A program made the translations under genes and the position numbers. A stretch of 64,000 bases of DNA from an uncultured Methylomirabilota bacterium (GTDB taxonomy: Bacteria > Methylomirabilota > Methylomirabilia > Methylomirabilales > 2-02-FULL-66-22): the NCBI GenBank assembly GCA_963705305.1, contig OY970067.1, positions 1,952,001 through 2,016,000 on the forward strand, read 5' to 3'. Numbering within the stretch: position 1 is the first letter of the stretch; every line of letters begins with the position of its first letter. A model generated the notes under the pieces. That model was not told the origin of the DNA, ran no database searches, and worked only from the letters and a program-made list of their open reading frames with translations. Positions 1,154-26,899 of the stretch are shown piece after piece.

Positions 1154-2188
1154 GTGAATCCCACTCGCATCGCCGTCGCCGGCATCGGCAGCATGGGCCG
1201 CAAACATGTCGACCTTCTCCGTGCCGAGCCGCGTTGCGAGCTCGTCGCCGTTGCCGACCCGGCGCCGGAGGCGAAGGAATACGCGGCGCGGATCGGCGTG
1301 CCGTACTATGCGGACTATCGAGAGATGCTGGACCGCACGAAGCCGGAAGGGGCGATCATCGCCTCCCCCACCCCGTTCCACGCGGCGATGGGGATCGCCT
1401 GCGCCGAGCGGCGCATCCACATGCTGATGGAGAAGCCCATCGCCGAGTCGGTCCAGGCTGCACGACAGCTGTCGTCCGCGGCGGAGCGGGCAGGGGTCGC
1501 GCTACTCGTCGGCCACCACCGGCGCCACAACCCCATCATCGAGAAGGCGCGCGAGATCGTCCGGGGCGGATTGCTTGGGAGATTGACTGCGGTGACCGCC
1601 CTCTGGCTCGTGCGGAAGCCGGGCGCGTACTACGAGCTGGCGTGGCGCCGCGAGCCGGGCGGCGGTCCAATGCTCACGAATCTCATCCACGACCTGGACG
1701 ATCTCCGGTACGTCTGCGGGGAGATCGAGAGCGTCCAAGCCTACTGTTCGAGCAGTGTCCGGGGCTTCGCCGTCGAGGACACCGCGGCGCTGAGCTTGCG
1801 ATTCGCCGGGGGGGCGCTCGGCACGGTTATCACATCGGATGCGGTCGCGGCGCCCTGGAGCTGGGAACTGACCTCGGGAGAGAATGCGCTCTTCCCGCAG
1901 CAGCGGGAGAATTGCTACCTGTTCGCCGGGGTCGCCGCGTCGCTCACGGTGCCGAAGCTCGAGCTCTGGCGGTACCCGGGAGAGGAGGGATGGACTGCGC
2001 CGCTCTGCTGTGAGCGGATCGCCGTCGAGCCGGCCGACCCACTCGAGCGGCAGCTCCGTCATTTCTGCCGCGTGATTCGCGGGGAGGAGGCGCCCCGCAT
2101 CACCGGCGCCGACGCGACGCGTACCCTGAGCGTCGTCCTGGCAGCCAAGCGGGCCGCGGAGCTCGGGACCGCCGTGACCCCGGACTGA
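1154..2188 (+). CDS. Gfo/Idh/MocA family NAD(P)-dependent oxidoreductase
   Basis: GGAGG RBS then GTG at 1154; IAVAGIGSMG, MEKPIA, VGHHRRHNP, GGGPMLTNLIHDLD. Confidence 0.92.
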   Translation: MNPTRIAVAGIGSMGRKHVDLLRAEPRCELVAVADPAPEAKEYAARIGVPYYADYREMLDRTKPEGAIIASPTPFHAAMGIACAERRIHMLMEKPIAESVQAARQLSSAAERAGVALLVGHHRRHNPIIEKAREIVRGGLLGRLTAVTALWLVRKPGAYYELAWRREPGGGPMLTNLIHDLDDLRYVCGEIESVQAYCSSSVRGFAVEDTAALSLRFAGGALGTVITSDAVAAPWSWELTSGENALFPQQRENCYLFAGVAASLTVPKLELWRYPGEEGWTAPLCCERIAVEPADPLERQLRHFCRVIRGEEAPRITGADATRTLSVVLAAKRAAELGTAVTPD

Positions 2189-2229: not shown

Positions 2230-3051
2230 ATGACGAGCCGGTACGTCGTGATCGGCAATCCGATCGCCCAGACCAAGTCCCCCTTTATTTACCGGGAGTT
2301 CGCCCGGCAAAGCGGGCAGGCCATGAGCTACGAGGCCATCCAGGCCCCCCTCGACGGATTCGCGGCGGTTCTGGCAGCGTTTCGTGCGGAAGGCGGGAAG
2401 GGCATCAACGTGGCCATGCCGTTCAAGATCGAGGCCTTCGCGCTGGCGACCGAGCTCACCGAACGGGCACAGCTCGCGGGCGCTGTCAACGTGATGCGAC
2501 TCGACGGCGAGCGAATCTTCGCGGACAACACCGACGGGGTCGGGCTGGTCCGCGACATCCGGGTCAATCTGAGGGGTGTGTTCCGCCGCGCACGCGTGCT
2601 TCTGCTGGGGGCAGGCGGCGCCGCCCACGGCGTAGCCCTGCCCATTCTCGAGGAGCGGCCCGCGCTCCTCGCCATCGCGAATCGCACCCCCGCCAAGGCC
2701 CGCGCGCTCGGCGCGCAGGTCTCGGGACGCGGCAACGTCGTGGCGGGAGGATACACCGAGGTCGCGGATGAGCCCTTCGATCTCGTCATCAACGCCACCC
2801 CGCCGAGCCCCAGCGGCGAGCCTCCCAGGGTCCCTGCCGCCGCGTTCAGGCGATGCGGCCTGGCCTACGACGTGGTGTACGGGAGAGGCCTCACTCCATT
2901 CCTGCGATTCGCCCGCGAGTCCGGTGCAGCCCGTGTGGCTGACGGCACCGGCATGCTGCTGGAGCAGGCCGCCGAGAATTTCTTCATCTGGCGGGGAATC
3001 CGCCCAGAGACGCAGGCACTGATCCGAAAGATTTCCGTGCCGCTCGTCTGA
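2230..3051 (+). CDS. aroE: Shikimate dehydrogenase family protein
   Basis: GNPIAQTKSP, GINVAMPFK, GAVNV, NTDG, GAGGAA, ANRT, YDVVY, DGTGMLLEQA. Confidence 0.85.
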   Translation: MTSRYVVIGNPIAQTKSPFIYREFARQSGQAMSYEAIQAPLDGFAAVLAAFRAEGGKGINVAMPFKIEAFALATELTERAQLAGAVNVMRLDGERIFADNTDGVGLVRDIRVNLRGVFRRARVLLLGAGGAAHGVALPILEERPALLAIANRTPAKARALGAQVSGRGNVVAGGYTEVADEPFDLVINATPPSPSGEPPRVPAAAFRRCGLAYDVVYGRGLTPFLRFARESGAARVADGTGMLLEQAAENFFIWRGIRPETQALIRKISVPLV

Positions 3052-3080: not shown

Positions 3081-5138
3081 GTGGATCTCGGACAGGCAAC
3101 GCGGCCGATCATGTGGAACGTCCACGCCCCCTGGGTGATGTACGTCCTGTTCGGCGTGGCGCTGGCGATCTTCACCGCTGGCGTATACCGACGGGTCTCA
3201 GCGTGGCGGCGGGGGAAGGCGGATGAGGAGCGGCTCGGTGATTGGGGGAGGCGGCTCGCAATCTTGATCAAGGAGGTGCTTTTCCAGAGGCGGGTTCGCG
3301 ACGTGGCGCTGCCGGGCTGGTTCCACAGCCTCATCTTCTATTCCTTCCTCGTCCTCCTCGTCACCACATCGGTCGTGGCGCTGGACTACGACTTCGGGGC
3401 GCACTTCTTCAGGGGCTGGCTCTACGTGCTCCTCACCTTGGGCTGCGATGTCGGCGGGGCGCTGATCCTGGCCGGGGTGGTCATCGCCGGCCTGCGTCGG
3501 TATGTCCTCAAGCCGAAAACCATCGAGACGACGCTGGGGGACTCGTGGGCGCTGCTGCTCGTCGCGCTGCTGGTCCTGACGGGCTTCGCGGTCGCAGCGC
3601 TTCGCATCGCCGTGCTCGGCAGCCGCTGGGCGTACGTGTCCCCAGTTGCTTGGGCTCTGAGTGGGGCCTTCACCGGGATCTCACGCGAAACCCTCCGCCC
3701 CATTCACGCATGGATGTGGTGGTTGCACACCGCGCTGGCCATGACCTGGATTGCGACCATCCCGTTTACGAAGTTCTTTCACCTGCTGGCCCTGCCCACC
3801 AACGTGTTCTTCTCCAAGCTCGGGCCCCGCGGTGAACTGAAGCGCGTCGACATCGAAGCCCTCATGGCCGCCGATGATTTCGACGAGGCGGCTTTCAGTC
3901 TGGGCATTGCCAGGGCGGGCGACTTCACCTGGAAGCAGCGGCTGGACTTCGATGTGTGCATTTCGTGCGGGCGATGCGAGGAGGTGTGTCCGTCCTTCCA
4001 GGCGGGAGAGCCGTTCTCGCCCAAGCGGTTCGTCCAGGCGGGCCGCGAGCTGTCGGGCGACCGAGGCGGACGTGGAGGAGGCAGCGGCGAGGATCTACTG
4101 GTCGGGGGTCTGCTGGAGGAGCGGTTTATCTGGTTTTGCCGGACGTGCAGCGCGTGCGTGGAGGTGTGTCCCGCCGCAATCGACCACGTGGACACGATGG
4201 TGGAGGTGCGCCGGAACGAGCTGATGATGCAGGCCCGGCTGCCCGTCGAGGCTTCGCGCGCGTTGAAGCTGATGGAGTCGCAGGGCAACCCCTTCGGGAA
4301 CCGGAACCTCCGCAGCCAGTGGATCCAGCAGATGAAGGTGCCGGTAGTGCCATCCGGCGGAGATGTCGACGTGCTCTACTGGGTCGGCTGCCTCAGCACA
4401 TTCGACCAGTCGAAGCAGAAGATCGCGGCCGACGTGTTCAAGCTGCTGGAGCGATCGGGGCTCAGCTACGGCGTCCTGGGCGCCGACGAGACCTGCTGCG
4501 GGGATCCCGCCAGGGTGCTGGGCGACGAGCGACTGTTCCAGGAGAACGCCAAGGGGCAGGTCGCGGCCCTCCATGGCCGGACCTTCCGCACGCTGTTGGT
4601 GAGCTGCCCGCACTGCTTCAACGTCCTGGCGAACGAGTATCCGCAATTCGGAGCGAAGCTGAGGGTCGTCCACCACTCCCAGCTCCTCCAGGAGTTGGTG
4701 TCGCGCGGTGTGATCCGGCCCTCCCTGCCCAGCAGCGAGAAGATCGTCTACCACGACCCCTGTTACCTGGGCAGGTACCAGGGAATCTACGATGGCCCGA
4801 GGAAGCTGCTCGAGGCCATTCCGGGCGCCGCCGTGACTGAGATGGCCAGCTGCAAAGAGCGCAGCTTCTGCTGCGGCGGCGGTGGTGGACATTTCTGGAT
4901 GGACCTCAGAGCCGATGGTGCAGAGCGGGTCAACAATCTGCGCGTCGACCAGGCCCGCGAGGCTGGCGCAGCGGTCATCGCGACAGGTTGTCCCTACTGC
5001 CACCAGATGCTTGATGACTCGATAAAGCTTCGCGATCTGGACAAGCGGATGCGGGTGTTGGACATCGCCACGCTATTGCTTGACAGCGTTGAGGGGCGGA
5101 GGCCGACCGCCAGCCAGGACGGGGGTCTGCGACGCTGA
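3081..5138 (+). CDS. Membrane Fe-S oxidoreductase, FadF/HdrF-like (TM cytochrome b-like + 2x[4Fe-4S] + two CCG domains)
   Basis: N-terminal TM helices with His; CISCGRCEEVCP and CRTCSACVEVCP; CCG motifs ETCCG, SCPHC, YHDPCYLGR, FCCGGGGG, GCPYC. Confidence 0.9.
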   Translation: MDLGQATRPIMWNVHAPWVMYVLFGVALAIFTAGVYRRVSAWRRGKADEERLGDWGRRLAILIKEVLFQRRVRDVALPGWFHSLIFYSFLVLLVTTSVVALDYDFGAHFFRGWLYVLLTLGCDVGGALILAGVVIAGLRRYVLKPKTIETTLGDSWALLLVALLVLTGFAVAALRIAVLGSRWAYVSPVAWALSGAFTGISRETLRPIHAWMWWLHTALAMTWIATIPFTKFFHLLALPTNVFFSKLGPRGELKRVDIEALMAADDFDEAAFSLGIARAGDFTWKQRLDFDVCISCGRCEEVCPSFQAGEPFSPKRFVQAGRELSGDRGGRGGGSGEDLLVGGLLEERFIWFCRTCSACVEVCPAAIDHVDTMVEVRRNELMMQARLPVEASRALKLMESQGNPFGNRNLRSQWIQQMKVPVVPSGGDVDVLYWVGCLSTFDQSKQKIAADVFKLLERSGLSYGVLGADETCCGDPARVLGDERLFQENAKGQVAALHGRTFRTLLVSCPHCFNVLANEYPQFGAKLRVVHHSQLLQELVSRGVIRPSLPSSEKIVYHDPCYLGRYQGIYDGPRKLLEAIPGAAVTEMASCKERSFCCGGGGGHFWMDLRADGAERVNNLRVDQAREAGAAVIATGCPYCHQMLDDSIKLRDLDKRMRVLDIATLLLDSVEGRRPTASQDGGLRR

Positions 5139-5353: not shown

Positions 5354-5403
5354 TTGACATTGGTTTTGTCAGGACTATTCTTTCTCTATAGAAGGAGTAT
5401 AAT
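5354..5403 (+). promoter_or_regulatory. Putative sigma70 promoter and operator of the GntR operon
   Basis: AT-rich patch: TTGACA 5354-5359, TATTCT 5376-5381, a further TATAAT 5398-5403; inverted repeat TGACA-N7-TGTCA 5355-5371 overlaps the -35. Confidence 0.55.
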
Positions 5404-5427
5404 GAAAATATAGTGAGGGGGGCGGCA

Positions 5428-6078
5428 ATGGCGATCGGGTCGAAAAGCAAGAAAGCCATCGTGTACGAAACACTGAAGAAGCGGATCGTTACCCACTCCT
5501 TGAAGCCCGGCGAGCCGATCAATGAGGTTCTCCTGGCCAGGGAACTGAAAACGAGCACGACGCCGTTGCGGGAGGCCCTGCAGCAACTGCAGAAGGAGGG
5601 CTTTGTCGAGAACTTCCCGGGACGAGGCTCATTCGTGTCCAGAATCTCCACGCAGGATGTCAGGGAGCTGTTCGAGATGCGGGAGATGCTGGAATGCGAG
5701 GTGATCAGGAGAGTGGTCTCCCAGGGCCTCGTGCGCGAGCAGAGGGCCCTGGCCATTCGCAAGGAGTTTGAATCGTCCGAGGGCAAGAGCCGCCCCACTT
5801 CGCGAAACTACTTCACGCCGGGCGACCAGATCCACCTGTTTGTTTTCGAATGTCTGGGGAACAGACGCCTGCTTGAGTACTACCGCAGCCTCCAGGAGCA
5901 CATCGAGCGCATGCGCCTCTATTTCTTCAGCAACTTCCACGAAGAACGGGCCGAGCACTCGTTCAAAGAGCACCTGGAGATCCTCGATGCGCTGCTCGCT
6001 CACGACGCCGATCGCGCCGAGCGCGCGGTGCGCACGCACCTGGAAAACGCCATGGACTACTTGAAGCGAATGACGTAG
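5428..6078 (+). CDS. GntR family transcriptional regulator (FCD domain)
   Basis: wHTH LKPGEPINE..LA..STTPLREAL..PGRGSFV; FCD tail EHLEILDAL..AVRTHLE. Confidence 0.93.
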   Translation: MAIGSKSKKAIVYETLKKRIVTHSLKPGEPINEVLLARELKTSTTPLREALQQLQKEGFVENFPGRGSFVSRISTQDVRELFEMREMLECEVIRRVVSQGLVREQRALAIRKEFESSEGKSRPTSRNYFTPGDQIHLFVFECLGNRRLLEYYRSLQEHIERMRLYFFSNFHEERAEHSFKEHLEILDALLAHDADRAERAVRTHLENAMDYLKRMT

Positions 6079-6099
6079 GGCGAGCCGGAGGAGTGAGAC

Positions 6100-6771
6100 A
6101 TGATCCATGTAATCAGCAAGATCGAACGACCGAAGAAATCCGTGATCGACCAGTTTCGAGAGGTCGGGGCCGCAACCGTCCACGAGGCATCCGGCCGGAA
6201 AGGGGCCGTCGATCCAGCCATCAAGCCCATTGCCAGAGGGGTCCGGCTCTGCGGCTCCGCCTTCACCGTCCAGTGCCACCCCGGGGACAACCTGATGCTA
6301 CACAAGGCTCTGGAGCGCGCCCAGCCGGGCGATGTCCTGGTGGCGACCGTCGGGGGCTGCTACGAAGGCGGATACTGGGGCGGACTGATGGGGACCTCGG
6401 GCCAGGCCAGGGGCCTGGGGGGGCTGGCCATCGACGGATGCGTCCGCGACTCCGCCGAGCTCATCCAGATGGGACTCCCGATCTTCTGCCGGGGGTTTTC
6501 CATCCGGGGCACGGTGAAGAGTGTTCTGGGCCTGATCAATCACCCGACGGTCTTCGGGGGGATCATGGTTCAGCCGGGGGACCTGATCCTGGGAGATGAC
6601 GACGGACTCGTCGTGGTCGAGCGGGCGGAGTGCGAGAGGGTCCTGGAGAAGTCGCTCGAGCGGAAGCGCGCCGAAGAGAAGAAAGCCGAGCAGTTGCGGG
6701 CGGGCATCTCGAGCGTCGAGCTGAACAAGCTCGGCAAGGTGTTCGAGACGCTCGGGCTTGTCGAGGAGTGA
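6100..6771 (+). CDS. 4-carboxy-4-hydroxy-2-oxoadipate / HMG aldolase (LigK/ProA-like, RraA family)
   Basis: AATVHEA, AFTVQCHPGDNLMLH, YWGGLM, IDGCVRD, PGDLILGDDDGLVVV, plus the C-terminal helix of the long LigK type. Confidence 0.85.
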   Translation: MIHVISKIERPKKSVIDQFREVGAATVHEASGRKGAVDPAIKPIARGVRLCGSAFTVQCHPGDNLMLHKALERAQPGDVLVATVGGCYEGGYWGGLMGTSGQARGLGGLAIDGCVRDSAELIQMGLPIFCRGFSIRGTVKSVLGLINHPTVFGGIMVQPGDLILGDDDGLVVVERAECERVLEKSLERKRAEEKKAEQLRAGISSVELNKLGKVFETLGLVEE

Positions 6772-6774
6772 GCC

Positions 6775-7812
6775 ATGCCTACTGTCACCGAGGCGCAACT
6801 GAAGGCAGCCGTCAGTCAGGTGCTCACGGGGTATGGCGCAGCCGAGGATGAGGCTCGGCTGGCCGCGGAGAGCATGGTGCAGGCCGAGATGCGGGGAACG
6901 GACACGCACGGGCTGCCCTACCTCAAGCTCTTGATCGAGCGCATCGAGGCCCGGATGGTGGCGGTCCCGACGCAGGTCACCATCGTCCGACAGGACCGAG
7001 CCACGGGCCTCCTCGACGGGGGCAACGGGATCGGGCAGGTGGCCGGATCGAAGGCCATGGAGCTGAGCGCCCAGAAGGCGCGGGAGTTCGGAATCGGCCT
7101 CACCCTCGTCCGCAACACCAACAACATCGGCTTCCTGGCGTTCTATACCCTCCGCGCGGCGGGGCAGGGGCTCGTGGGAGTGGCGATGGGCAACGCCAAC
7201 GCCGCCATCTCTCCCTGGGGGGGTGCCGAGCCGTTTTTCGGTACCAATCCCCTTTCCATCGCGGTGCCCGGCGACGACGAGCCGCTGGTCCTGGATATGT
7301 CCTCGAGCCTGGTGGCGCGGGGCAAGATCCGCAAGGCGCAGCGGCTGGGGGAGAAGATCCCACTGGGATGGGCGCATGACGAGTTCGGCGTGCCGACGGA
7401 GGACCCGGGGGCTGCGCTCAAGGGGACACTCGTGCCCATCGGCGGGCCGAAAGGGTACGGCCTGGCGCTGATGGTGGACGTCCTCGCCGGGATGCTGTCG
7501 GGGGCCGCGTTCGGGCCGGATATCAAGAGCTTCCATCAGCTCATGGGGCCGACCCGTGTCGGGGTGTTGATGCTGGCGATCGATGTGGAGCGGTTTATGC
7601 CCCTGGCCCAATTCCGGGGCCTCCTGAAGGGGTACGTCGGTTCGATCCGCAGCAGCCGGAAGGCGAAAGGTACGTCCCGCATCTATCTCCCCGGGGAGAT
7701 CGAGTCGGAGAAGGAGAAGACGAGCCGGGCGCATGGCATCCGGCTGAGCGACCCCTCCGTCGAGATGTTGAACCAGCTCCTGGAGAAGGCGAAGAGTTCC
7801 CTGCGCTTCTGA
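6775..7812 (+). CDS. Ldh_2 family (malate/L-lactate/ureidoglycolate-type) 2-hydroxyacid dehydrogenase
   Basis: RGTDTHG, DGGNGIGQ, GTNPLSIAVP, LDMSSS, GGPKGYGLA, YLPGE. Confidence 0.92.
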   Translation: MPTVTEAQLKAAVSQVLTGYGAAEDEARLAAESMVQAEMRGTDTHGLPYLKLLIERIEARMVAVPTQVTIVRQDRATGLLDGGNGIGQVAGSKAMELSAQKAREFGIGLTLVRNTNNIGFLAFYTLRAAGQGLVGVAMGNANAAISPWGGAEPFFGTNPLSIAVPGDDEPLVLDMSSSLVARGKIRKAQRLGEKIPLGWAHDEFGVPTEDPGAALKGTLVPIGGPKGYGLALMVDVLAGMLSGAAFGPDIKSFHQLMGPTRVGVLMLAIDVERFMPLAQFRGLLKGYVGSIRSSRKAKGTSRIYLPGEIESEKEKTSRAHGIRLSDPSVEMLNQLLEKAKSSLRF

Positions 7813-7873
7813 GCGAGGACTGTCGTCGGTGTTGAGGAAGATGGCCGCCGTGGGGAGGGCGAAGGAGGATAGC

Positions 7874-8620
7874 ATGAACGAGCTGAAGGATCAGGTCGTG
7901 GCCGTGACGGGTTCGGGGAAGGGGCTGGGAAAGGGGATCGCCGAGCGGTGTTATGCCGAAGGGGCCATGGTCGTCACCTGGGATCGGTCCGGCCTGGCGA
8001 AGGGCGTGGCGGATACGCTGGATCCCTCCGGCAAGCGAACGCTCTACGTCCGGGCGGATGTGCGAGAGGAGAACCAAGTGGCGCAGGCCTTCGCCGAGAT
8101 CATGAAGAAGTTCGGGCGGGTGGACGTGCTCGTCAACAACGCTGGCATCTCGCGCCACAAGCCCATCGAAGAGATGAGCGTGGATCTCTTCGAAGAGGTG
8201 ATGAACACGAACACGACGGGCGTCTTTATCTGCTGCAAGGCCGCGACCCCCATCATGAAGAAGCAGGGGCGGGGCAAGATCGTCAACATCGCGTCCCTGG
8301 GAGGGCGCACCGGCCGGCCCGGCGTAGGGGTGAATTACGCGGCCTCCAAGGCCGCCGTGATCGCCATCACACAGACCCTGGCCCGGGAGCTGGGGCCGTC
8401 GGGGATCTACATGAACGCCATCGCCCCCGGTCCGATCCTGACAGAGCAAACCCGCCAATACCCCCCGGAGGTGTTTGCCAAGTGGAATGCCGGCCGGGCA
8501 GTCCAGAAGGACGGCCTGCCCGAGGACGTGGCCGACGCGGTCCTCTTCCTCGCCTCGAATCGGTCGGACTGGGTGACGGGGGTGACGCTGGATCTCAACG
8601 GCGGGATCCTCATCCGGTAG
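7874..8620 (+). CDS. Short-chain dehydrogenase/reductase
   Basis: TGSGKGLG, NNAG, YAASK; AAGGAGG RBS. Confidence 0.93.
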   Translation: MNELKDQVVAVTGSGKGLGKGIAERCYAEGAMVVTWDRSGLAKGVADTLDPSGKRTLYVRADVREENQVAQAFAEIMKKFGRVDVLVNNAGISRHKPIEEMSVDLFEEVMNTNTTGVFICCKAATPIMKKQGRGKIVNIASLGGRTGRPGVGVNYAASKAAVIAITQTLARELGPSGIYMNAIAPGPILTEQTRQYPPEVFAKWNAGRAVQKDGLPEDVADAVLFLASNRSDWVTGVTLDLNGGILIR

Positions 8621-8695
8621 TCGTGAAATCGTGTGGGGCCGGCGCCGATCCTGTCGGCGGCGCCGGCGCGGCACCCTGCAAGAAAAGGAGGCGCG

Positions 8696-9055
8696 ATGTC
8701 CGAGCTGAAAGTCGTCAACATCAAGGATGTCCCTGGAGAGCGGCGGGATCCACCCCGGACGTCATGGATTCTCGTCTCGGAAAAGACCGTTGGCGCGCAA
8801 AATCTGGCGATGGGCGTCAACGAGACCGAGCCGGGGAGCATGGTGCCGGCGCACAAGCACGAGAAGGAAGAGGAGGTCATGTTCTTCCTGCAGGGGACCG
8901 GAAAGTTCGTCACCGAGGACCGGGAGATTCCGATCGGGCCGGGGATCGTGATCTATAACCCGCCGGGGAAGACGCACAAGATCCTGAACACGGGAAGCGA
9001 GGTCCTTCGGTTCGTCTGGATCTACGCGCCCCAGCTGGCAAGCCACCGCAAGTAA
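8696..9055 (+). CDS. Cupin domain protein
   Basis: PAHKHEKEEEVMFFLQG and PPGKTHKILNTG cupin motifs; AAGGAGG RBS. Confidence 0.9.
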   Translation: MSELKVVNIKDVPGERRDPPRTSWILVSEKTVGAQNLAMGVNETEPGSMVPAHKHEKEEEVMFFLQGTGKFVTEDREIPIGPGIVIYNPPGKTHKILNTGSEVLRFVWIYAPQLASHRK

Positions 9056-9079
9056 CGAGGGGCAAAACTCAACCCGAAG

Positions 9080-9130
9080 TTCGTCTGGATCTATGCGCCG
9101 CAGTTGCCGCGGCATCGAGTGCAGACATGA
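9080..9130 (+). repeat. Diverged duplicate of the cupin 3' end (remnant)
   Basis: FVWIYAPQLPRHRVQT* vs FVWIYAPQLASHRK* at 9011; offset 69 nt, same frame, synonymous changes. Confidence 0.75.
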
Positions 9131-9155
9131 CATCGAGAAGGAGGTAAGGGACGCC

Positions 9156-10121
9156 ATGAGCGACTGGAAATTCCCGCCGGCAGGCGGGCACATGGAAAAG
9201 CCCTCGAAGATCTATTACCAGACGATGACGAAGAAGGACATCGAGGAGCGCCTAAAGGTCAACGACATCCTGCTCATCCCGTTCGGCTCGACCGAGAACC
9301 ACGGCGACGCGCAGCCGTACGGCGAGGACGTGTTCATCGTGACGAGGATGTGCGAGATGATCGCGCAGAAGACCGGATGCACCGTGGCGGAGCCACTCTG
9401 GTACGCCTCGCATCCCTTCGCCCACCTGGGGCAGACGGGGACCGTTCCCATCCCCGACGATCTGACATCGGCGCTCGTGCGCTCGATCGTCTCAGGGTAC
9501 TGGAACGCAGGGTTCCGCAAGCAGATCCTGATGAGCAGCCACGGGCAAGAATACATCATCCCATCGGCCATCCAGGAGTGGGCCAAGAAGTACCAAGTTC
9601 CCGCCGTGATCATTTTCCTGGACGTGATGAAGATCATGGGCGACGCGCTGAAGGACAAGGCCCACGGCGGCCCCTTCGAGACCCCCTTCCGGCACGGTGA
9701 CGAGGCGGAGAACTCCATCTGCCTGGCGCTCTTCCCCGAGTTCGTGCAGATGGAGAACTGCGTCGACACCAAGACGTGGGGCTTCCTGCCCGAGGGGCAT
9801 ATCGACAAGGGCGGCGACATCTACAACTACCCCATTCCCGGCCAGAGCCACGTTGGCGGCAGCGGGGTGGAGTTCGCGGTCTATCCGGAAGGCGTGCTGG
9901 GCAAGCCGTCGCTCGCCAAGGCCGAGAAAGCCTACCAGGCCATCGAGAACTACATGAATTACGTTGTCAAGCTGCACAACGACATCCGGGCGAAATTCCC
10001 TCCGGGGGTGCTGCCGGAGGCAAAGTACATGACCCAGAGGAGCGCGGAGGAGATCGATCTTCTCCTCAAGGGGCCGGACAGGGGCGGCAGGCACCTCTAC
10101 ACGATCGCCTGGCCTGCGTGA
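9156..10121 (+). CDS. iolN: Creatininase-family beta-diketone ring hydrolase, 3-dehydro-scyllo-inosose hydrolase (IolN)-like
   Basis: WKFPPAGGHMEKP..IYYQTMT, GSTENHG..GED, WNAGFRKQIL..HGQE, GGPFETPF.H.DE.E, FLPEGHIDK, YPEGVLGK; resembles Thermotoga IolN as I recall it. Substrate may differ. Confidence 0.8.
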   Translation: MSDWKFPPAGGHMEKPSKIYYQTMTKKDIEERLKVNDILLIPFGSTENHGDAQPYGEDVFIVTRMCEMIAQKTGCTVAEPLWYASHPFAHLGQTGTVPIPDDLTSALVRSIVSGYWNAGFRKQILMSSHGQEYIIPSAIQEWAKKYQVPAVIIFLDVMKIMGDALKDKAHGGPFETPFRHGDEAENSICLALFPEFVQMENCVDTKTWGFLPEGHIDKGGDIYNYPIPGQSHVGGSGVEFAVYPEGVLGKPSLAKAEKAYQAIENYMNYVVKLHNDIRAKFPPGVLPEAKYMTQRSAEEIDLLLKGPDRGGRHLYTIAWPA

Positions 10122-10277
10122 TCGGGAGGATTGTGAAAAGGGCAGTCGTCAAGGCAAACCAGAGTCCGGGCTCCTAAGCCGCTCACCCAGCTTGGGAGAG
10201 CCCGTTCCTTGGTTCATCGGCCGCGGGGGAGGCGCCGCTCGACCCTCCCCCGCGGTCTCAACACGCGAGGTCTGGAC

Positions 10278-11309
10278 ATGAAAGCCATTGTGAAAGCGCG
10301 GGAAGATGCGGGGGCCATGGAGGTCCGAGAGCTTCCCGTCCCGGAGCCCGGACCCGGCGAAGTGCTGGTCAAGATGCGGGCCGCAGGGATCTGTTTCAGC
10401 GACGTGATGATCCTGAACAACAAGTACAAGGGACGGGTCCCCGTGCCGATCCCTATGATCATGGGCCACGAGGGCGCGGGAGAGGTGGCCGCGGTCGGCA
10501 AGGGCGTGGAGCATGTCAAGGCCGGTGACAAGGTCGGCCTCAACCCGCTGTGGGGCTGCGGGCAGTGCGTGGATTGTCTGAACGGGCAGCCAAACATGTG
10601 CTCGACGTGGCGCCATCTGGGGATCACCTGCGACGGAACGTTCGCGGAATACCGGGCTGTTCCGGCCTTCACCGCCTGCAAGCTGCCGAAAAGCATCTCG
10701 CCGGTCGATGCCGCCTTCATCGAACCGATCAGCCTGGCGGTCCGTACCTTCGAGCATGTGAAACCGGTGCTCGGCGACACGGTGGCCATCATCGGCCCGG
10801 GATCGATCGGGCTCTTCCATCTGCAAGCCTTCAAGTCGGCGGGTGCTGCCAAGATAATGGTGATCGGCCTGGACCAGGACGCTCAGCGGTTCGAGATCGC
10901 GAAGCAGTTGGGAGCCGACCACATCATCAACGGGAGTAAGGAAGACGTGGTGAAGCGGGTGCGGGAGCTGACCAACGGCCTGGGAGCCGACATTGTTGTC
11001 GAAACCGCGAACCATCCCGCCACCGTCCCGCTGGCCGTCAACCTGGCTGCGGCACGAGGCCGCGTGCATCTGTTCGGTCTCTATCCGGAAGCCGCCATGA
11101 GCCCGCTCACCCTCCTCCGGGCTGGTGTGACCATGTCCGGAGACGTGGCGACCCTTCCGCGGTACTTCCTGCGAGCCATGCGCTGGATCGAGTACAAGAA
11201 GGTCCTGGCCGCGCCCATGGTCACCCGGTCGTTCCGTCTCGATCAGGCGCAAGAGGCCTTCCAGGCCTTCAGCCGGGGGGACAGCGTAAAGGTTCTGTTC
11301 GAGATGTAG
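10278..11309 (+). CDS. Zn-dependent polyol/alcohol dehydrogenase (MDR; sorbitol/Tdh-like)
   Basis: GICFSD, GHEGAG, CGQCVDC..C, GPGSIG. Confidence 0.93.
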   Translation: MKAIVKAREDAGAMEVRELPVPEPGPGEVLVKMRAAGICFSDVMILNNKYKGRVPVPIPMIMGHEGAGEVAAVGKGVEHVKAGDKVGLNPLWGCGQCVDCLNGQPNMCSTWRHLGITCDGTFAEYRAVPAFTACKLPKSISPVDAAFIEPISLAVRTFEHVKPVLGDTVAIIGPGSIGLFHLQAFKSAGAAKIMVIGLDQDAQRFEIAKQLGADHIINGSKEDVVKRVRELTNGLGADIVVETANHPATVPLAVNLAAARGRVHLFGLYPEAAMSPLTLLRAGVTMSGDVATLPRYFLRAMRWIEYKKVLAAPMVTRSFRLDQAQEAFQAFSRGDSVKVLFEM

Positions 11310-11335
11310 GCAGCCCGTCACAAGGGGAGATGACC

Positions 11336-11782
11336 ATGAAGAAGATCCTGGTGCTGCATGGGGTCAACCTGAATATGTTCGGGAAGCGCGACCCCACCCA
11401 GTACGGGACAATCACCCTCGAGGAGATCAATCAGCAGCTCAGTGCCCTGGCCAGAGAGCTGGGGGTGGAGCTGGAGACCTTCCAGACGAACTTCGAAGGG
11501 GAGATCTGCGAGAAGATCCACACGGCGCACCTGGACAAGGTCGATGCGGTGATCGTCAACGCCGGCGCCTGGACGCATTACAGCATCGCTCTGCGCGACG
11601 CCCTGGCGATCCTGAAGGTCCCCATCATCGAATGTCACATGTCGAACATCCACGCGCGGGAGGAGTTCCGACACGTCTCCCACGTTTCTCCCCTGGCCAA
11701 GGGCATCATCGCCGGGTTCGGGGTTCAGAGTTATCTCCTGAGCCTTCGGGCCGCGGCAGCGCTGCTGTCAGGACAGGGATAG
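11336..11782 (+). CDS. aroQ: Type II 3-dehydroquinate dehydratase
   Basis: GVNLNMFGKRDPTQYG, NAGAWTHYSIALRDA, ECHMSNIHAREEFRH. Confidence 0.95.
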   Translation: MKKILVLHGVNLNMFGKRDPTQYGTITLEEINQQLSALARELGVELETFQTNFEGEICEKIHTAHLDKVDAVIVNAGAWTHYSIALRDALAILKVPIIECHMSNIHAREEFRHVSHVSPLAKGIIAGFGVQSYLLSLRAAAALLSGQG

Positions 11783-11829
11783 AAGGGGCGGGGCGCATCG
11801 GCGGACATCGTCAGCGGATGGAGTGCGGG

Positions 11830-12705
11830 ATGACGAAGACCCGATATGCATTTCTTCTGGGACAGCACATTTCCCATTCGCTTTCGCCGGCGATCCACAA
11901 TTCCGCCTATGCCGCGCTGGGGCTGGACTGCGAATTCCGGCTGCTCGACGTGCCCCCGGCCCAGCTCCGGGAGGCCCTGGCGCGCCTGCGACAACCCGAC
12001 TGTTTGGGGGCCATCGTCACCATGCCGTACAAACAGGAGATGCTCGCCGCCGCGGACGAGTGCTCGGATGCGGTCCGCCGCTGCGAGGCCGCCAATCTCA
12101 TAATCAACCGCGACGGGCGCTTTGCGCTCCACAACAACGATGTCGAGGCCATCGCCGCCTGCCTGGGTCGTCGCGCGGCCACGGTGGCCAGGGGGCAGGC
12201 GGTGATCCTGGGGGCGGGCGGCGCGGCGGCCGCCATGCTGGAGGCGCTGCGGCGCGTCCCGCCGACCCGGGTGCTCGTTCTGGCCCGGCGCGTGGAAGCC
12301 GCCACAGCGCTCGCCGGGCGGGCCCGCGACTGGCTCGGGGTGCCCGTCGAGGCGGGCCATCTGGCGGAGGGTGTGCCGGCGATGGCCACGGCGGCGGTCA
12401 TCTTCAATGCCACGCCTCTGGGGATGCGGCCGGGCGACCCCAGTCCCGTGCCGCGGGAAGCGCTGCGGCCCGGCCTGCTGGTCTATGACATCGTGTACCA
12501 GCGCGGGGGGCTCAGCGCGCTGCAGGCTGACGCCCTCGCCGCCGGGGCCCTGGTGTGCGATGGGTTGACCCATATCTTCGAGCAGACGCCCTTCTCCTTC
12601 CAGATGCTGACGGGCCGACCCGCCCCTCGCGAGGTGATGCTGAAAAGCCTCGTGGCGGCGGCGGGCCGAGAGCCGCTGGACTGGGGGGCGGATCGTCCAA
12701 CGTAA
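11830..12705 (+). CDS. Divergent shikimate/quinate dehydrogenase family protein
   Basis: SHSLSPAIHN, GAIVTMPYK, HNNDV, GAGGAA, NATPLG, YDIVY. Confidence 0.85.
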   Translation: MTKTRYAFLLGQHISHSLSPAIHNSAYAALGLDCEFRLLDVPPAQLREALARLRQPDCLGAIVTMPYKQEMLAAADECSDAVRRCEAANLIINRDGRFALHNNDVEAIAACLGRRAATVARGQAVILGAGGAAAAMLEALRRVPPTRVLVLARRVEAATALAGRARDWLGVPVEAGHLAEGVPAMATAAVIFNATPLGMRPGDPSPVPREALRPGLLVYDIVYQRGGLSALQADALAAGALVCDGLTHIFEQTPFSFQMLTGRPAPREVMLKSLVAAAGREPLDWGADRPT

Positions 12706-12744
12706 ACGCGGCGAAAAGCGAGGCCGCAAAAGGAGGTTCCCCCC

Positions 12745-13071
12745 ATGATATACGAGATGCGTACCTACACCGCGATGCCCGGACGCCTGGCGGATCTGCA
12801 CAAGCGCTTTGCGGAGATCACGCTGGGCTTCTTTCAGAAACACGCCATTCGTGCCGTGGGATTCTGGACCAACGAACTGGGGGGCTCCTCGGATCAGTTG
12901 ATCTACATGCTGGCCTACGACAGCCTGGCCGATCGGGAAAAGAAGTGGGGCGCTTTCCTGGCGGATCCAGAGCGGTCGGCCAAGTTTGCGGAGACGGAGA
13001 AGAACGGCCCGCTGGTCCGGTGCCTCACGGCCCAGATCCTGCGGCCCACTCCGTACTCACCCATGCAGTGA
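12745..13071 (+). CDS. NIPSNAP family protein
   Basis: MIYEMRTY..PG, LIYMLAYDSLADREKKW, ILRPTPYSP. Confidence 0.9.
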   Translation: MIYEMRTYTAMPGRLADLHKRFAEITLGFFQKHAIRAVGFWTNELGGSSDQLIYMLAYDSLADREKKWGAFLADPERSAKFAETEKNGPLVRCLTAQILRPTPYSPMQ

Positions 13072-13114
13072 CGGGCAAGGACACACTGGCGATTCCAGTT
13101 CGAGGAGGTCGGAC

Positions 13115-14845
13115 GTGCGCAACATCGTGAGGGTCAACACCCGGACAGGCGAGATTCGCATCACAGCCGGCTCGGAGGACGAGCTTCGGTGGGGAGGCCG
13201 CTCGTTGATCGCGCACCTGATGCTGCGCGACGTGCGCCCCAGCTGTGATGCGCTGGGGAGAGAGAACAGGCTCATCGTGGCCTCGGGATGGTTGGGTGAC
13301 ACCTCGGTGACCACGGCGGGGCGATGTTCCGTTGGGGGCAAAAGCCCGCTCACGGGCGGTGTCAAGGAGGCCAACGTCGGCGGCGAGCCCGGCAGGAAGC
13401 TGGCGCGGCTCGGTATGCGGGCGCTGATATTGGAGGACGCGCCCGAGACGGCCGAGGCGCGGGTGCTCTGGATCGGAAAAGACAGGTGTGAGCTGCTGCC
13501 CGCGCCGGAGCTGCGGAAGGCGGAAGTGGCGCGGACCTTTCAGCTTCTGCACGAGCGGTTCGGCGAGGATGTCGGTATCTTCTGCATTGGGCCGGCGGGA
13601 GAAATGCGGCTCGGCGGCGCGGCCATCGCCACCACGGACAAGACGGGTGTCCAGGCGCGGTTTGCCGCGCGCGGCGGCTTGGGCGCCGTGATGGGCGCCA
13701 AGGGCATCAAGGCGATCGTCATCGACGATGCGGGCGTGCGGCCGGAGCCGGCCCATGACCCCGCCGCCTTGAATGCGGCCGGCCGGGAGCTATGGCAGAT
13801 CCTGCGGGATGACCCGAAGACCCAGAACCGCCACGACTTCGGGACGCCGGCCGTTCTGTCCATCTGCGACTCCCTCGGCATTCTCCCGACCCGGAACTTC
13901 CGGACCGGCCACTTCGAGGGGTTCGAGGCCATCTCGGGCGAGCGGGTGGCCGACCTGATCGTGGGTCGGGGCGGCGAGGGTGAGCGGGGAGTCCTGTGCG
14001 TTCGCGGCTGCAACATCCAGTGCTCCAACAATTTCCCCGACCCCGGCGGGAAGACGCTGGTGGCCTCGCTGCAGTACGAGAATATCGGCCTGCTGGGCTC
14101 GAATTGCGGCATCGACGATGTGGATGAGGTGGCCAGGATCAACCACCTCTGCAATCAGGTGGGGGTTGATACGATTGAAACCGGGGCGGCCATCGGCGTG
14201 GCCATGGAAGCCGGCGTGATCCCCTTCGGCGACTCGACGGGGGCCAAGGATCTCGTCCAGCAGATCGGACGGGGCACACCGCTCGGCCGGGTGCTGGGAA
14301 GCGGCGTGGTCGTGACCGGGCGCGTGTTCGGGGTCGGCCGCATCCCCGCCGTCAAGGGGCAGGCCATCCCCGCGTACGACCCGCGGTCGCTGAAGGGGAT
14401 CGGGGTCTCGTATGTGACCTCCCCCATGGGGGCGGATCACACCGCGGGCAACGCCCTGGAGATGGCCAAGGCCCTTGACCAGAAGAAAAAGGAAGGGCAG
14501 GTCGAGGCGTCGTTGCGGCTGCAGGTTCGGGCCGCACTCCTCGACAGTCTGGGGGTCTGCCTCTTCATTCGGCCGGCCTTTGTGAAGAACCCCGACCTCC
14601 TTCCGCGGCTGCTCAACGCCCGGTACGGCTGGTCCCTCACCTTTGCCGAGGTGCGGCAGATGGGGATCGAGTGCCTGAAAATGGAGCGGGACTTCAACCG
14701 CCTCGCCGGCGTGCTGGACGAGCTGTGCGACGTACCCGAGTTCATGCGGACCGAGCCGCTGCCGCCCTTCAACACGGTTTTCGATGTGCCTCGCGAGGAG
14801 ATGCAGCGGATCTGGGACGTGCAACTCCCCGAGGGTGTCTTTTAG
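13115..14845 (+). CDS. Aldehyde ferredoxin oxidoreductase family (W/Mo-pterin)
   Basis: KSPLTGGVKEANVGG, IGPAGE, ARGGLGAVMGAKGIKAI, CVRGCNIQCS, DTIETG, AYDPR, GADH; GAGGAGG RBS then GTG. Confidence 0.92.
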   Translation: MRNIVRVNTRTGEIRITAGSEDELRWGGRSLIAHLMLRDVRPSCDALGRENRLIVASGWLGDTSVTTAGRCSVGGKSPLTGGVKEANVGGEPGRKLARLGMRALILEDAPETAEARVLWIGKDRCELLPAPELRKAEVARTFQLLHERFGEDVGIFCIGPAGEMRLGGAAIATTDKTGVQARFAARGGLGAVMGAKGIKAIVIDDAGVRPEPAHDPAALNAAGRELWQILRDDPKTQNRHDFGTPAVLSICDSLGILPTRNFRTGHFEGFEAISGERVADLIVGRGGEGERGVLCVRGCNIQCSNNFPDPGGKTLVASLQYENIGLLGSNCGIDDVDEVARINHLCNQVGVDTIETGAAIGVAMEAGVIPFGDSTGAKDLVQQIGRGTPLGRVLGSGVVVTGRVFGVGRIPAVKGQAIPAYDPRSLKGIGVSYVTSPMGADHTAGNALEMAKALDQKKKEGQVEASLRLQVRAALLDSLGVCLFIRPAFVKNPDLLPRLLNARYGWSLTFAEVRQMGIECLKMERDFNRLAGVLDELCDVPEFMRTEPLPPFNTVFDVPREEMQRIWDVQLPEGVF

Positions 14846-16861: not shown

Positions 16862-17044
16862 CACCTCTGCTTGAAGGACGCGGACGGAGAGGAGGCGGGA
16901 CACTCAGGGCAGCGCCAGAAGTAACCAGGCTTCTTCATCGGGGGCCGTGGGCCCCAAGGAGGGCAGGAGATGGCAAGCATGGGAGGAGGCTCGAGGGTGT
17001 CCATGCGCACGGGGTGCGGCGGAGGCACATCGCGGGAAAAGGGC

Positions 17045-18241
17045 ATGTCCCTGCCGGGAGGATTCGCCCTGGGGCGACGTGGGGTCCTGCTGGTCCTTGG
17101 AGTGGCGCTTGTCGCCGCACTGGCGGCCGTACCGCCCGCGTTCGCCCAGACCGTCAAGCTCGCCACCCTGGCGGAGATCACGGGAGCCGGCGCGCCCGTT
17201 GGAAACATGTGGCGCGACGGAGTCAACCTGGCGGTTGAGGACATCAACAAGAAGGGCGGGATCCTGGGCCGGAAGGTGGAGAACATCACCATGGACACCC
17301 AGTCGGACCCGCCGACCGCCGTGTCCGTCATGCGTCGCGCGCTCAACGAGAAGCCGTTTGCCATCCTGGGGCCGGTGTACAGCAGCGGCACGCTGGCCAA
17401 CATGGACCTTGCGCGCCAGACCGGCATCCCCCAGATCACCGGGTCCGAAGCGGTGTTCCTGGTCGAAAAGGGGAATCCCAATATTTTTCTGACCTCCTTC
17501 ACTCAGCAGGTCAGCTTTGCGATTGCTGTCCGCTGGCTCGTCGACGATCTCAAGGCGCAGAAGATCGCGCTGATCTGGGTGAACGACGCCTTTGGCAAAG
17601 GCGGTCGGGACATGTTCCTCAAGTTTCTCAAGGAGAGAGGCAAGCCCCCCGTTGCGGATATTTCCACAGAGGTGGGGCAGGCCGATTTCACACCGGAGCT
17701 GACCCAGGTGCGGGCCTCCGGGGCTACCTACGTCATGATTTACCTCCACGAGGAGGAAAGCGCGCGCTTGATGATCCAACTCCGCAGCCTCGGGCTGAAC
17801 ATCCATGCGGTCGGTGAAACAACCCTCTGCACTCAGGACACCATCAATGCGGGCGGGGACGCCCTGAACGGTGCCATGTGCCATGTGCCGATGACGGCAG
17901 ATGCGCCCATTCCTGCCATGGTGGACGTGGCCAAGCGGTTTCGGGAGAAGTACGGGCACGGGCCAGACCACAACGCCTTCAAAGCATATATCGGAGTCCA
18001 CATGGTGAAGACAGTCGTGGACCGGGTAGGCGCCTTCGACCAGGCCAAGTTCCGCGACTGCTTGCATAACAACCTGTTCACCACGGCAGACGAACCCGGG
18101 TTGCTCATGGACATGTACATGGCCAACAACGGGGATGCCGATCGCCAAAGCTTTATCGTGGAGGTGCAGAACCGCCAGCAGAAGGTGATCGAGGCCGTGC
18201 CGATGTTGCACGGGCCCTACACCAAGCGGGCCTGTCGCTAA
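17045..18241 (+). CDS. LIV-type ABC transporter substrate-binding protein (1 of 3)
   Basis: Signal peptide ending AFA-Q; INKKGGILGRKV, DAFGKGG, ADFTPEL; start uncertain (16970-17045). Confidence 0.9.
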   Translation: MSLPGGFALGRRGVLLVLGVALVAALAAVPPAFAQTVKLATLAEITGAGAPVGNMWRDGVNLAVEDINKKGGILGRKVENITMDTQSDPPTAVSVMRRALNEKPFAILGPVYSSGTLANMDLARQTGIPQITGSEAVFLVEKGNPNIFLTSFTQQVSFAIAVRWLVDDLKAQKIALIWVNDAFGKGGRDMFLKFLKERGKPPVADISTEVGQADFTPELTQVRASGATYVMIYLHEEESARLMIQLRSLGLNIHAVGETTLCTQDTINAGGDALNGAMCHVPMTADAPIPAMVDVAKRFREKYGHGPDHNAFKAYIGVHMVKTVVDRVGAFDQAKFRDCLHNNLFTTADEPGLLMDMYMANNGDADRQSFIVEVQNRQQKVIEAVPMLHGPYTKRACR

Positions 18242-18254
18242 AGCGGCGACCGGG

Positions 18255-18274
18255 GGGGGAGCCCCGGCTCCCCC
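18255..18274 (+). terminator. GC-rich hairpin after the SBP gene (attenuator or mRNA stabiliser)
   Basis: GGGGGAGC-CCCG-GCTCCCCC; no U-tract. Confidence 0.4.
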
Positions 18275-18301
18275 TCTCTCGGGTAATCCTGGGGGACTGG
18301 C

Positions 18302-19177: not shown

Positions 19178-19190
19178 GGAGGAGACACCC

Positions 19191-20186: not shown

Positions 20187-20207
20187 TCCCGGCAAGGGAG
20201 AGCCAGG

Positions 20208-20945: not shown

Positions 20946-20947
20946 GC

Positions 20948-22240: not shown

Positions 22241-22302
22241 CTCAATTGGCGAGTGCGTCGGACACCGGTGAATCCGAATGCTCCGATAGGCTGCGAGGAT
22301 CG

Positions 22303-23535: not shown

Positions 23536-23637
23536 CGCAGGGAGATCATCAACGCGGACACTTACCCCAGTCTCTTCTCGCTGTTCAGCGTGGGGGTCAT
23601 CCCTTTGCCCAATCGCATCGCTTCAGGGGTATTCTGC

Positions 23638-26887: not shown

Positions 26888-26899
26888 ATAGGAGCCCCG

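Follow-up and report, generated by a model that had tools for sequence, protein, structure and literature searches.

What could a bacterium degrade with a gene cluster that joins a LigK-type aldolase, a hydrolase resembling IolN of inositol catabolism, and proteins of the shikimate and quinate enzyme families? The question is raised by eleven genes at positions 5428-14845 of the window studied here, i.e., the whole analysed stretch of 64,000 nt from the genome of an uncultured Methylomirabilota bacterium (GenBank assembly GCA_963705305.1, contig OY970067.1, positions 1,952,001 to 2,016,000 of the forward strand). Results of our analysis, which is based on sequence comparisons, indicate that the cluster rather likely encodes an oxygen-independent, non-aromatising catabolic route for quinate and shikimate. 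Its central idea, the hydrolytic opening of the ring, comes from the first-pass annotation of the window, and every computational test that we ran, whether of gene conservation, of importer type or of the hydrolase clade, agrees with it.

The eleven genes had been described as one run headed by gntR. They are indeed all intact open reading frames (ORFs) of the plus strand separated by short gaps, and their assignment to families by Pfam and NCBIfam profile searches is as follows:

5428-6078, plus strand: GntR/FCD regulator (Pfam/NCBIfam match)
6100-6771, plus strand: LigK-like class II aldolase of the RraA family, related to aldolases of HMG (4-hydroxy-4-methyl-2-oxoglutarate) and CHA (4-carboxy-4-hydroxy-2-oxoadipate) (NF006731, 225.5 bits)
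6775-7812, plus strand: Ldh_2-family 2-hydroxyacid dehydrogenase (Pfam, 367 bits)
7829-8620, plus strand: short-chain dehydrogenase/reductase (SDR), start codon uncertain (Pfam/NCBIfam match)
8696-9055, plus strand: Cupin_2, a small metal-binding cupin (Pfam match, metal motif)
9156-10121, plus strand: IolN-like hydrolase of the creatininase fold (NF041098, 490 bits)
10278-11309, plus strand: Zn-dependent dehydrogenase, IolM-like (Pfam/NCBIfam, below the IolM cut-off)
11330-11782, plus strand: AroQ, type II 3-dehydroquinate dehydratase (TIGR01088, 188 bits)
11830-12705, plus strand: AroE-like protein, a divergent member of the shikimate/quinate dehydrogenase family (below every AroE cut-off)
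12745-13071, plus strand: NIPSNAP-domain protein (Pfam match)
13115-14845, plus strand: tungsten-type aldehyde ferredoxin oxidoreductase (AOR) (AFOR_N and AFOR_C)

The start of the AOR gene was placed not at 12986 but at GTG 13115, which follows a GAGGAGG ribosome site. As the first-pass annotation had stated, the window lacks the enzymes of an aromatising route: neither a ring-cleaving dioxygenase nor a member of AP_endonuc_2, which is the fold of dehydroshikimate dehydratase, was found among the window ORFs scanned with Pfam. LigB-type and intradiol dioxygenases had no match in the whole 5.65-Mb, 98.9% complete genome, and the aldolase therefore cannot belong to an aerobic protocatechuate route in this organism.

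The arrangement of these genes is far beyond chance, as the same gene set recurs at 85 of 86 related loci from several phyla. The 86 distinct loci come from two scans in which the IolN-like protein was searched against contigs of one genome per species (in the second scan, motifs matched relatives in 515 stretches, and the best 80 of the 515 were kept); their IolN-like proteins are 63-98% identical to that of the window, and iolN itself was recovered in 85 of them. Their hosts are labelled as Spirochaetota, Syntrophales, Atribacterota, Chloroflexota, Bacillota and Methylomirabilota. Carriers in culture include Fervidicola ferrireducens Y170, Thermovorax subterraneus DSM 21563 and Thermovenabulum gondwanense. 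The recurrent gene order is GntR-LigK-Ldh_2-AOR-SDR-cupin-IolN-(importer)-Zn-dehydrogenase, often followed by AroQ. For counting we used the 46 well-flanked loci, which have at least 5.5 kb upstream and at least 9 kb downstream of iolN. LigK is encoded at all 46, Ldh_2 at 44, the cupin at 43, GntR at 41 and AOR at 39; the SDR is present with at least 50% identity at 32, and the Zn-dehydrogenase with at least 45% identity at 31, with more distant Zn-dehydrogenases at others. Gfo/Idh/MocA (Gfo) dehydrogenases occur at 11 of the 46. The NIPSNAP protein, at first counted as a cluster member, has to be dropped from the conserved set, as none of 85 related loci carries it. The gaps between mapped genes hold further AroE-like genes, Gfo dehydrogenases and carboxylate importers encoded by DctPQM or TctABC. 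Such importers, of the tripartite ATP-independent periplasmic (TRAP) or the tripartite tricarboxylate transporter (TTT) type, are present at 44 of the 46 loci and point to an acid as the probable substrate.

Conservation of aro genes beside iolN and ligK had been named beforehand as one of the checks on which the proposal could fail. The neighbourhood search found a gene for AroQ, AroD or an AroE-like protein at 22 of the 46 loci, next to the ubiquitous LigK. A dehydroquinase is encoded at 20 of them, by aroQ at 17 (in two tandem copies at 12) and by aroD, whose type I product is not homologous to AroQ, at three; at the Syntrophaceae locus L008, aroD lies directly behind iolN. That two unrelated kinds of dehydroquinase were recruited to the same cluster suggests an intermediate that is dehydroquinate or dehydroshikimate, and is hard to explain otherwise. 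The AroE-like protein is rare at the loci (6/46).

The IolN-like hydrolase of the window matches NF041098, the model of IolN (3-dehydro-scyllo-inosose hydrolase), over its full length (1-307) with a score of 490 bits at a cut-off of 245. Its Glu/His/Asp and His/Glu motifs align with creatininase (1Q3K/3A6J), whose metal-ligand roles we take to apply to the aligned positions, and the residues E47, H49, D58, H129, H180 and E185 are invariant in 159 members of the IolN family. The only solved structures matching the protein are creatininases (46-48 bits); a true IolN, with which pockets could be compared, is not among them. In a search at 50% clustering the IolN family has very few full-length representatives. 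The nearest one outside the group, P0122, is 54% identical to the window protein and was used as the query for the sister clade, bringing in 80 loci (the best 80 of 260) with hosts labelled as Bathyarchaeota, Thermoflexus, Anaerolineae, Asgard archaea, Diplocloster and Clostridium asparagiforme. From these, 26 loci with flank lengths equal to those of the LigK-type loci served as a control set.

The genomic company of the two groups differs. LigK was found at none of the 80 sister-clade loci, and hence at none of the 26 well-flanked ones; TRAP or TTT importers were found at none of the 26, and aro genes at one of 26 vs. 22 of 46 LigK-type loci. Conversely, a sugar-type (Peripla_BP_4) binding protein is encoded at 10 of the 26 sister-clade loci vs. 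none of the 86 LigK-type loci, and an IolO-like AP_endonuc_2 protein at 14 of 26 vs. one of 86, where in both cases this genome's own copies were the queries; two or more Zn-dehydrogenases occur at 16 of 26. The sugar-type importer and IolO-like epimerase that accompany the inositol pathway are therefore not the usual company of LigK-type loci. In a quick FastTree tree of 159 IolN rows, 65 LigK-linked and 16 short-flank rows form one clade, which has local support of 100 and whose stem measures 0.35 changes per site. None of the 26 LigK-free rows falls within it, so that one change on the tree suffices for the LigK label. The LigK-linked clade is marked by eight diagnostic alignment positions, namely K26, Q93, F154, D156, G219, D221, G229 and G237, and the window protein carries all eight.

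The genome under study itself contains three IolN-family paralogues in three contexts, one in the LigK cluster, one in a triad of Zn-dependent alcohol dehydrogenase, IolN and AP_endonuc_2 genes, and one beside a sugar-type ATP-binding cassette (ABC) importer. The paralogue at genome positions 786493-787434 (locus L199) belongs to the sister clade. The one beside the ABC importer (genome positions 5198214-5199177, locus L200) is 52-53% identical to the window IolN and is read in two overlapping frames, so that it is a frameshifted pseudogene unless the assembly is in error. Yet another kind of locus (L169, L168 and L177) was met in Syntrophales genomes that already carry a LigK-type cluster (L009, L038 and L006). 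Its IolN (56-58% identity) lies outside the LigK clade; an AOR gene (44-46%) follows iolN in all three, a cupin is encoded in L169 and L177, a 66% identical Zn-dehydrogenase and AroD in L169, and LigK is not within reach of any of the three.

Among the remaining enzymes, the aldolase passes the model of CHA aldolase/oxaloacetate decarboxylase (NF006731, cut-off 179), remains below the cut-off of the ligK_PcmE model (TIGR02798, 214.5 vs. 304.5 bits), and aligns over its full length and gap-free with the Pseudomonas putida HMG/CHA aldolase 3NOJ (181.9 bits). Eleven residues are named in the description of the P. putida enzyme (PMC5065237) for catalysis, metal binding and phosphate activation, among them the catalytic Arg-123 and the metal ligands Asp-124 and Glu-199. 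All eleven, counted by hand from the 3NOJ alignment, are kept in the window aldolase: Arg-40, Asn-71, His-75, Gly-101, Arg-123, Asp-124, Gly-144, Thr-145, Lys-147, Arg-195 and Glu-199. We propose that its substrate would be CHA, to be split into pyruvate and oxaloacetate. The nearest solved structures of the Ldh_2 protein are archaeal malate dehydrogenase and L-sulfolactate dehydrogenase, and it may oxidise a 2-hydroxy acid to the 2-oxo acid, here CHA. The AOR (AFOR_N 170 bits, AFOR_C 226 bits) matches Pyrococcus AOR 1AOR with 216.7 bits over residues 4-551 and is proposed to be a tungsten-type enzyme converting an aldehyde to an acid.

The AroQ protein passes both of its models (TIGR01088, 188 vs. 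169.85 bits; NF003805, 206.6 vs. 146 bits). The AroE-like protein is only a superfamily member (best score of 182.9 bits vs. a cut-off of 252; TIGR00507, 144.5 vs. 200.2), the SxS, catalytic Lys and Asp motifs of which align with the solved shikimate dehydrogenases 2EGG and 1NVT; presumably, these motifs serve substrate binding and catalysis in it as well. The Zn-dehydrogenase fails the IolM model NF041097 (201.1 bits, cut-off 450), and models of threonine dehydrogenase score higher on it and fail too; it is proposed to be a 3-dehydroquinate 5-dehydrogenase. The SDR is a candidate dehydrogenase of quinate or of another ring hydroxyl. The cupin carries an HxH...E + H (His/His/Glu/His) metal motif that is invariant in eight orthologues. 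Its matches are generic, namely, cupin clusters in the ESM Atlas and, in a Foldseek search with the AlphaFold model, small cupins including archaeal phosphomannose isomerases, and its role as an isomerase of CO-CH2OH to CHOH-CHO thus stays conjectural.

The route that these assignments suggest would begin with the uptake of the acid by a TRAP importer whose genes lie immediately upstream of the window. An AroE-type enzyme would oxidise shikimate to 3-dehydroshikimate, to be hydrated by AroQ to 3-dehydroquinate, while quinate would give 3-dehydroquinate directly, by the action of the AroE-like protein, the SDR or a Gfo dehydrogenase. The IolM-like Zn-dehydrogenase would then oxidise C5, which would yield 3,5-didehydroquinate, a cyclic 2-hydroxy-1,3-diketone, and the IolN-like hydrolase would cut its C-C bond with water to form HOOC-CH2-C(OH)(COOH)-CH2-CO-CH2OH. 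The hydroxyketone end of this compound would be turned into a 2-hydroxyaldehyde by the cupin and the aldehyde into an acid by the AOR, with electrons passed to ferredoxin; Ldh_2 would oxidise the 2-hydroxy acid to the 2-oxo acid, i.e., CHA, and the LigK-like aldolase would release pyruvate and oxaloacetate. The order of the middle steps (cupin, AOR and Ldh_2) is proposed with less confidence than the route as a whole. Our balance for quinate reads C7H12O6 + 2 H2O = pyruvate + oxaloacetate + 8 [H]; two waters and four oxidations, of two electrons each, fit the four oxidoreductase steps, the hydrolase and the AOR. The route needs no dehydratase, and the conserved core has none. The tertiary C(OH)(COOH) required by a CHA-type aldolase is proposed to come from C1 of quinate.

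Few soluble plant acids reach soils, peat, sediments and guts in such abundance as quinate and shikimate, either free or esterified in chlorogenic acids, and their anaerobic fermentation has been known since the early 1990s. Strict anaerobes reportedly ferment both without aromatic intermediates, as Brune and Schink are said to have described in 1992 and Brune et al. in 2002 for Ilyobacter insuetus; to our knowledge, no genes or enzymes have been assigned to this process. The physiology is the same as that which the cluster would explain. Somewhat less firmly than towards the route in general, we lean towards a more specific reading, namely that the hydrolases of the LigK-linked clade are 3,5-didehydroquinate C-C hydrolases and that the cluster represents the missing anaerobic mineralisation of quinate and shikimate without an aromatic ring, converging on CHA with the aerobic meta-cleavage of protocatechuate and gallate.

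Parts of this route resemble known pathways. Thermotoga maritima reportedly has an oxidative myo-inositol pathway comprising IolG, IolM, IolN and IolO (attributed to Rodionova et al., 2013). In it, two dehydrogenations of the cyclitol give a cyclic 2-hydroxy-1,3-diketone, which is hydrolysed by IolN to a keto acid ending in CO-CH2OH. The window hydrolase resembles this system in passing the curated IolN model, which T. maritima alone passes among 14 control genomes. It differs from it in belonging to a separate clade that is always LigK-linked and usually accompanied by Ldh_2, the cupin, AOR and a carboxylate importer, and often by a dehydroquinase; furthermore, a carboxylic acid is proposed as the substrate, and the product would be split to pyruvate and oxaloacetate instead of entering uronate catabolism. 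With the lower part of the protocatechuate 4,5-cleavage and gallate pathways (LigK, GalC) the cluster shares the aldolase family and the proposed CHA substrate and products. In those pathways, however, CHA originates from oxygen-dependent cleavage of an aromatic ring, whereas this genome has no LigB-type or intradiol dioxygenase, the hosts of the cluster are labelled as anaerobic lineages, and TIGR02798 is not passed. The classical aerobic route leads through quinate/shikimate dehydrogenase, dehydroquinase and dehydroshikimate dehydratase to protocatechuate and then to a dioxygenase. The entry by an enzyme of the quinate/shikimate dehydrogenase family and a dehydroquinase is alike, but neither dehydroshikimate dehydratase nor dioxygenase was found in the window or genome, and ring opening is proposed to precede aromatisation. 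The proposed novelty lies in combining the CHA aldolase step with the opening of a cyclic 1,3-diketone by hydrolysis. No published description of such a route was found in the literature searched, which left out most subscription journals; one paper on quinate (PMC10054779) proposes salvage to chorismate.

The importer and a second set of genes possibly serving the route are encoded upstream. The following features precede the cluster in the window:

1155-2188, plus strand: NAD-dependent Gfo/Idh/MocA (IolG-like) dehydrogenase (ORF 1061-2188, predicted start GTG 1155; weak match to the IolG model)
2230-3051, plus strand: canonical AroE, shikimate dehydrogenase (NF001310, 317.7 bits, cut-off 221)
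3081-5138, plus strand: membrane iron-sulfur oxidoreductase with NarI-like, two [4Fe-4S] and CCG domains (Pfam)
5354-5412, plus strand: promoter-like TTGACA/TATTCT with three TATA boxes, candidate GntR operator (promoter search)

The promoter-like sequence preceding gntR is the sole one on the plus strand between 5000 and 22500, and the three TATA boxes that follow it have an 11-bp period. At Syntrophales loci the same box architecture, with AATATAT boxes, precedes gntR. The pattern TATA-N7-TATA-N7-TATA occurs only twice in the 5.65 Mb, here and 7.7 kb upstream, before etfB, where a second copy of the promoter and TATA boxes lies at genome position 1949633 (locus L202 13633). That second site heads an operon of etfB, etfA, an acyl-CoA dehydrogenase gene, a 98-amino-acid (aa) ORF, Gfo, aroE and the membrane iron-sulfur oxidoreductase gene, which ends at the gntR promoter. 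The 98-aa ORF (861-1157) has no Pfam match, overlaps the long form of the Gfo ORF and may be a gene remnant. In spite of the shared operator, the electron transfer flavoprotein, acyl-CoA dehydrogenase and membrane iron-sulfur genes were not found at the 86 related loci, and the membrane oxidoreductase is accordingly not part of the conserved core. The Gfo protein matches the IolG model weakly (140.6 bits, cut-off 355) and is 42% identical over its full length to a Gfo protein encoded inside a spirochaete cluster (L020), which makes it a candidate for the first oxidation of the hydroaromatic acid. The aroE of this operon is the sole canonical one of the genome, the other of its two Shikimate_dh_N genes being the AroE-like gene of the cluster.

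Upstream of the window, genes for a second GntR (GntR2), an SDR and a TRAP system are preceded by a third operator of similar make-up. Locus L202 7017-13562 (genome positions 1943017-1949562) encodes a Zn-dependent alcohol dehydrogenase (minus strand), GntR2, the SDR, a fused DctQM, DctP and a ThiS-like protein; an AroK-AroB fusion is encoded at L202 4830-6533. GntR2 is 60% identical to the window GntR and is preceded by a similar promoter and boxes, and the two paralogous repressors would control three promoters with similar AT-rich operators. The upstream GntR2, SDR and DctP are the genome's best matches to cluster-linked Syntrophales proteins, with up to 65, 74 and 62% identity, respectively, so that the conserved importer is present in this genome but split off from the cluster. 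The conserved importer is this TRAP system and not the Liv-type ABC system downstream (16970-21658), which, together with an enoyl-CoA hydratase and a second Zn-dehydrogenase, is not conserved with the cluster. Many DctP structures in PDB match the TRAP binding protein, encoded at L202 11894-12958, and among the ligands listed for them none bears on quinate.

A number of observations weigh against the assignment of quinate and shikimate as substrates. At 24 of the 46 well-flanked loci there is no aro gene within reach, so that the link to dehydroquinate depends on about half of the loci and on how well LigK fits the chemistry. In the vicinity of some clusters there are biosynthetic aro genes (AroA in L008, TyrA in L022, AroK-AroB and the canonical AroE here), and part of the aro linkage could thus reflect salvage or biosynthesis instead of catabolism. 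The genome has two AroQ genes, either of which may be the biosynthetic one, and AroD was not found in it. The score of the window hydrolase is far above the cut-off of the model of the true inositol enzyme, Firmicute proteins within the LigK-linked clade reach still higher values (545.6), and the two proposed specificities are thus not told apart by sequence models. Among the diagnostic positions only K26 adds a positive charge and two are changes of Asn to Asp, so that by themselves they do not demonstrate the binding of an extra carboxylate; nor do the Atlas and fold searches lend the cupin's predicted role specific support. Since the loci are kin, Fisher tests on the counts of LigK-type vs. 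sister-clade loci overstate significance. Furthermore, a locus entered either set by its resemblance to one of two query proteins, so that IolN lineages in between (58-63% identity) are under-sampled.

The loci devoid of aro genes and the biosynthetic neighbours would also suit an alternative in which the same logic, from two oxidations through the cleavage of a cyclic 1,3-diketone by water to tail oxidation and an aldol split, applies to another carboxylated carbocycle or a related acid, with the aro genes serving salvage or biosynthesis. We consider it unlikely. The LigK-type aldolase found at every well-flanked locus calls for a 4-hydroxy-2-oxo acid, and the substrates of the solved aldolase bear, according to PMC5065237 and to what is known of the family, a carboxyl on the carbinol carbon. 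This carboxyl is what C1 of quinate supplies. We know of no other common carbocycle that would do so, and the recruitment of two non-homologous dehydroquinases and the excess of aro genes over the control loci speak against this alternative as well. Somewhat less likely still is a different order of steps on the same substrates, in which the aldolase would split the ring-opened hydroxyketone into oxaloacetate and hydroxyacetone, and the cupin, AOR and Ldh_2 would take hydroxyacetone via lactaldehyde and lactate to pyruvate. This order employs the same enzymes with the same overall balance; AORs oxidise many small aldehydes, and the nearest solved Ldh_2 relatives are 2-hydroxyacid dehydrogenases. 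These relatives, however, use dicarboxylic or sulfonated 2-hydroxy acids, and the aldolase keeps the full pyruvate-enolate site of CHA aldolases, including Arg-123, Asp-124 and Glu-199, which suits a 2-oxo acid and not a hydroxyketone.

That the cluster encodes a myo-inositol pathway of the Thermotoga type (IolM, IolN) with an unusual lower part is what databases imply, as NCBI and JGI records name close relatives of the hydrolase 3-dehydro-scyllo-inosose hydrolase, in line with its NF041098 score. We regard this as improbable given the carboxylate-type importers at 44 of 46 loci, the absence of matches to this genome's sugar-type binding protein at all 86, the low IolM score of the Zn-dehydrogenase, and the single locus of 86 with a match to the IolO-like AP_endonuc_2 protein of this genome's inositol-type triad, even though other AP_endonuc_2 genes occur at 24 of the 46. 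Moreover, the ring-opened inositol product would require a dehydratase before an aldol split, which the core does not encode, the LigK-linked IolN proteins form a separate clade, and the other IolN paralogues of this genome sit in contexts of the inositol type. Finally, it is very improbable that the genes are mere neighbours with no shared pathway, as this is already contradicted by the conservation counts, i.e., the same order and set at 85 of 86 loci in several phyla, and by the short intergenic gaps and the single promoter-like site.

If the hydrolytic route for quinate and shikimate is correct, it would fill the gene and enzyme gap in their anaerobic use and represent a route of strict anaerobes in peat, wetlands, sediments and digesters, for which the cluster would provide a marker gene set of quinate and shikimate carbon flow in anoxic habitats. 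It would also give a defined physiological job to a tungsten AOR and be a case of hydrolytic diketone cleavage reused from inositol for a carboxylated ring. The widespread automatic IolN annotation would then need correction, as hundreds of entries named as inositol enzymes would be misnamed. The enzymes of the cluster could make CHA-type building blocks from intermediates of the shikimate pathway.

A hint at expression comes from a peat metatranscriptome, in which a 2006-nt contig of a relative (about 90% identical) spans the SDR-cupin-IolN-Zn-dehydrogenase part of the cluster, and shorter contigs, which like the former are contigs and not reads, cover AroQ/AroE-like and AOR; it is a weak hint that the cluster is expressed in this relative, as carry-over of DNA into the library is possible. 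Among the sequencing runs with a matching stretch, X1 has a share of 0.34 and all others of about 0.05. Within the host genus, 7 of 20 genomes carry an IolN of the LigK clade, as compared to none of 20 genomes from other families of the order, a patchy distribution of the kind shown by an accessory catabolic island.

The iolN gene alone (window positions 9165-10114) is 84-92% identical in DNA sequence to copies in metagenome-assembled genomes labelled as Spirochaetota and Syntrophaceae (L001, L003, L009, L027 and others). The edges of this match are gene-sharp, and the flanking genes of the same loci have only about 67-75% DNA identity (51-64% in protein). This looks like a recent, gene-precise horizontal replacement across phyla; the GC content of iolN shows no contrast to its neighbours and is uninformative as to the direction of transfer. 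At the spirochaete loci L020 (13809-18120), L052, L064, L080 and L097, the cluster is accompanied by a module for a creatinase-like M24 protein, a ThiS-like one, AroQ in two tandem copies and an AP_endonuc_2 TIM-barrel protein that matches no NCBIfam model. The barrel protein could be an unrecognised dehydroshikimate dehydratase or isomerase. An M24 gene whose product is 43% identical to that of the module is also present in the window, at 37959-39155.

Elsewhere in the window, two long ORFs of the minus strand (1084 and 436 aa; 51796-56323) gave no hit in Pfam at a threshold of E 1e-8. The region 22030-37616 has a lower GC content (0.54-0.62) and encodes two family III CoA-transferases, a CoA_trans protein, MaoC dehydratases, an NMO-family protein, a nitroreductase, a DUF169 protein and a second Liv-type ABC system; these genes are separate CoA-dependent acid-catabolic modules that are not conserved with the cluster. 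In the genome as a whole there are seven RraA-like genes and at least 10 AOR-like tblastn matches, an abundance that suggests many uncharacterised catabolic routes dependent on aldolases and AORs.

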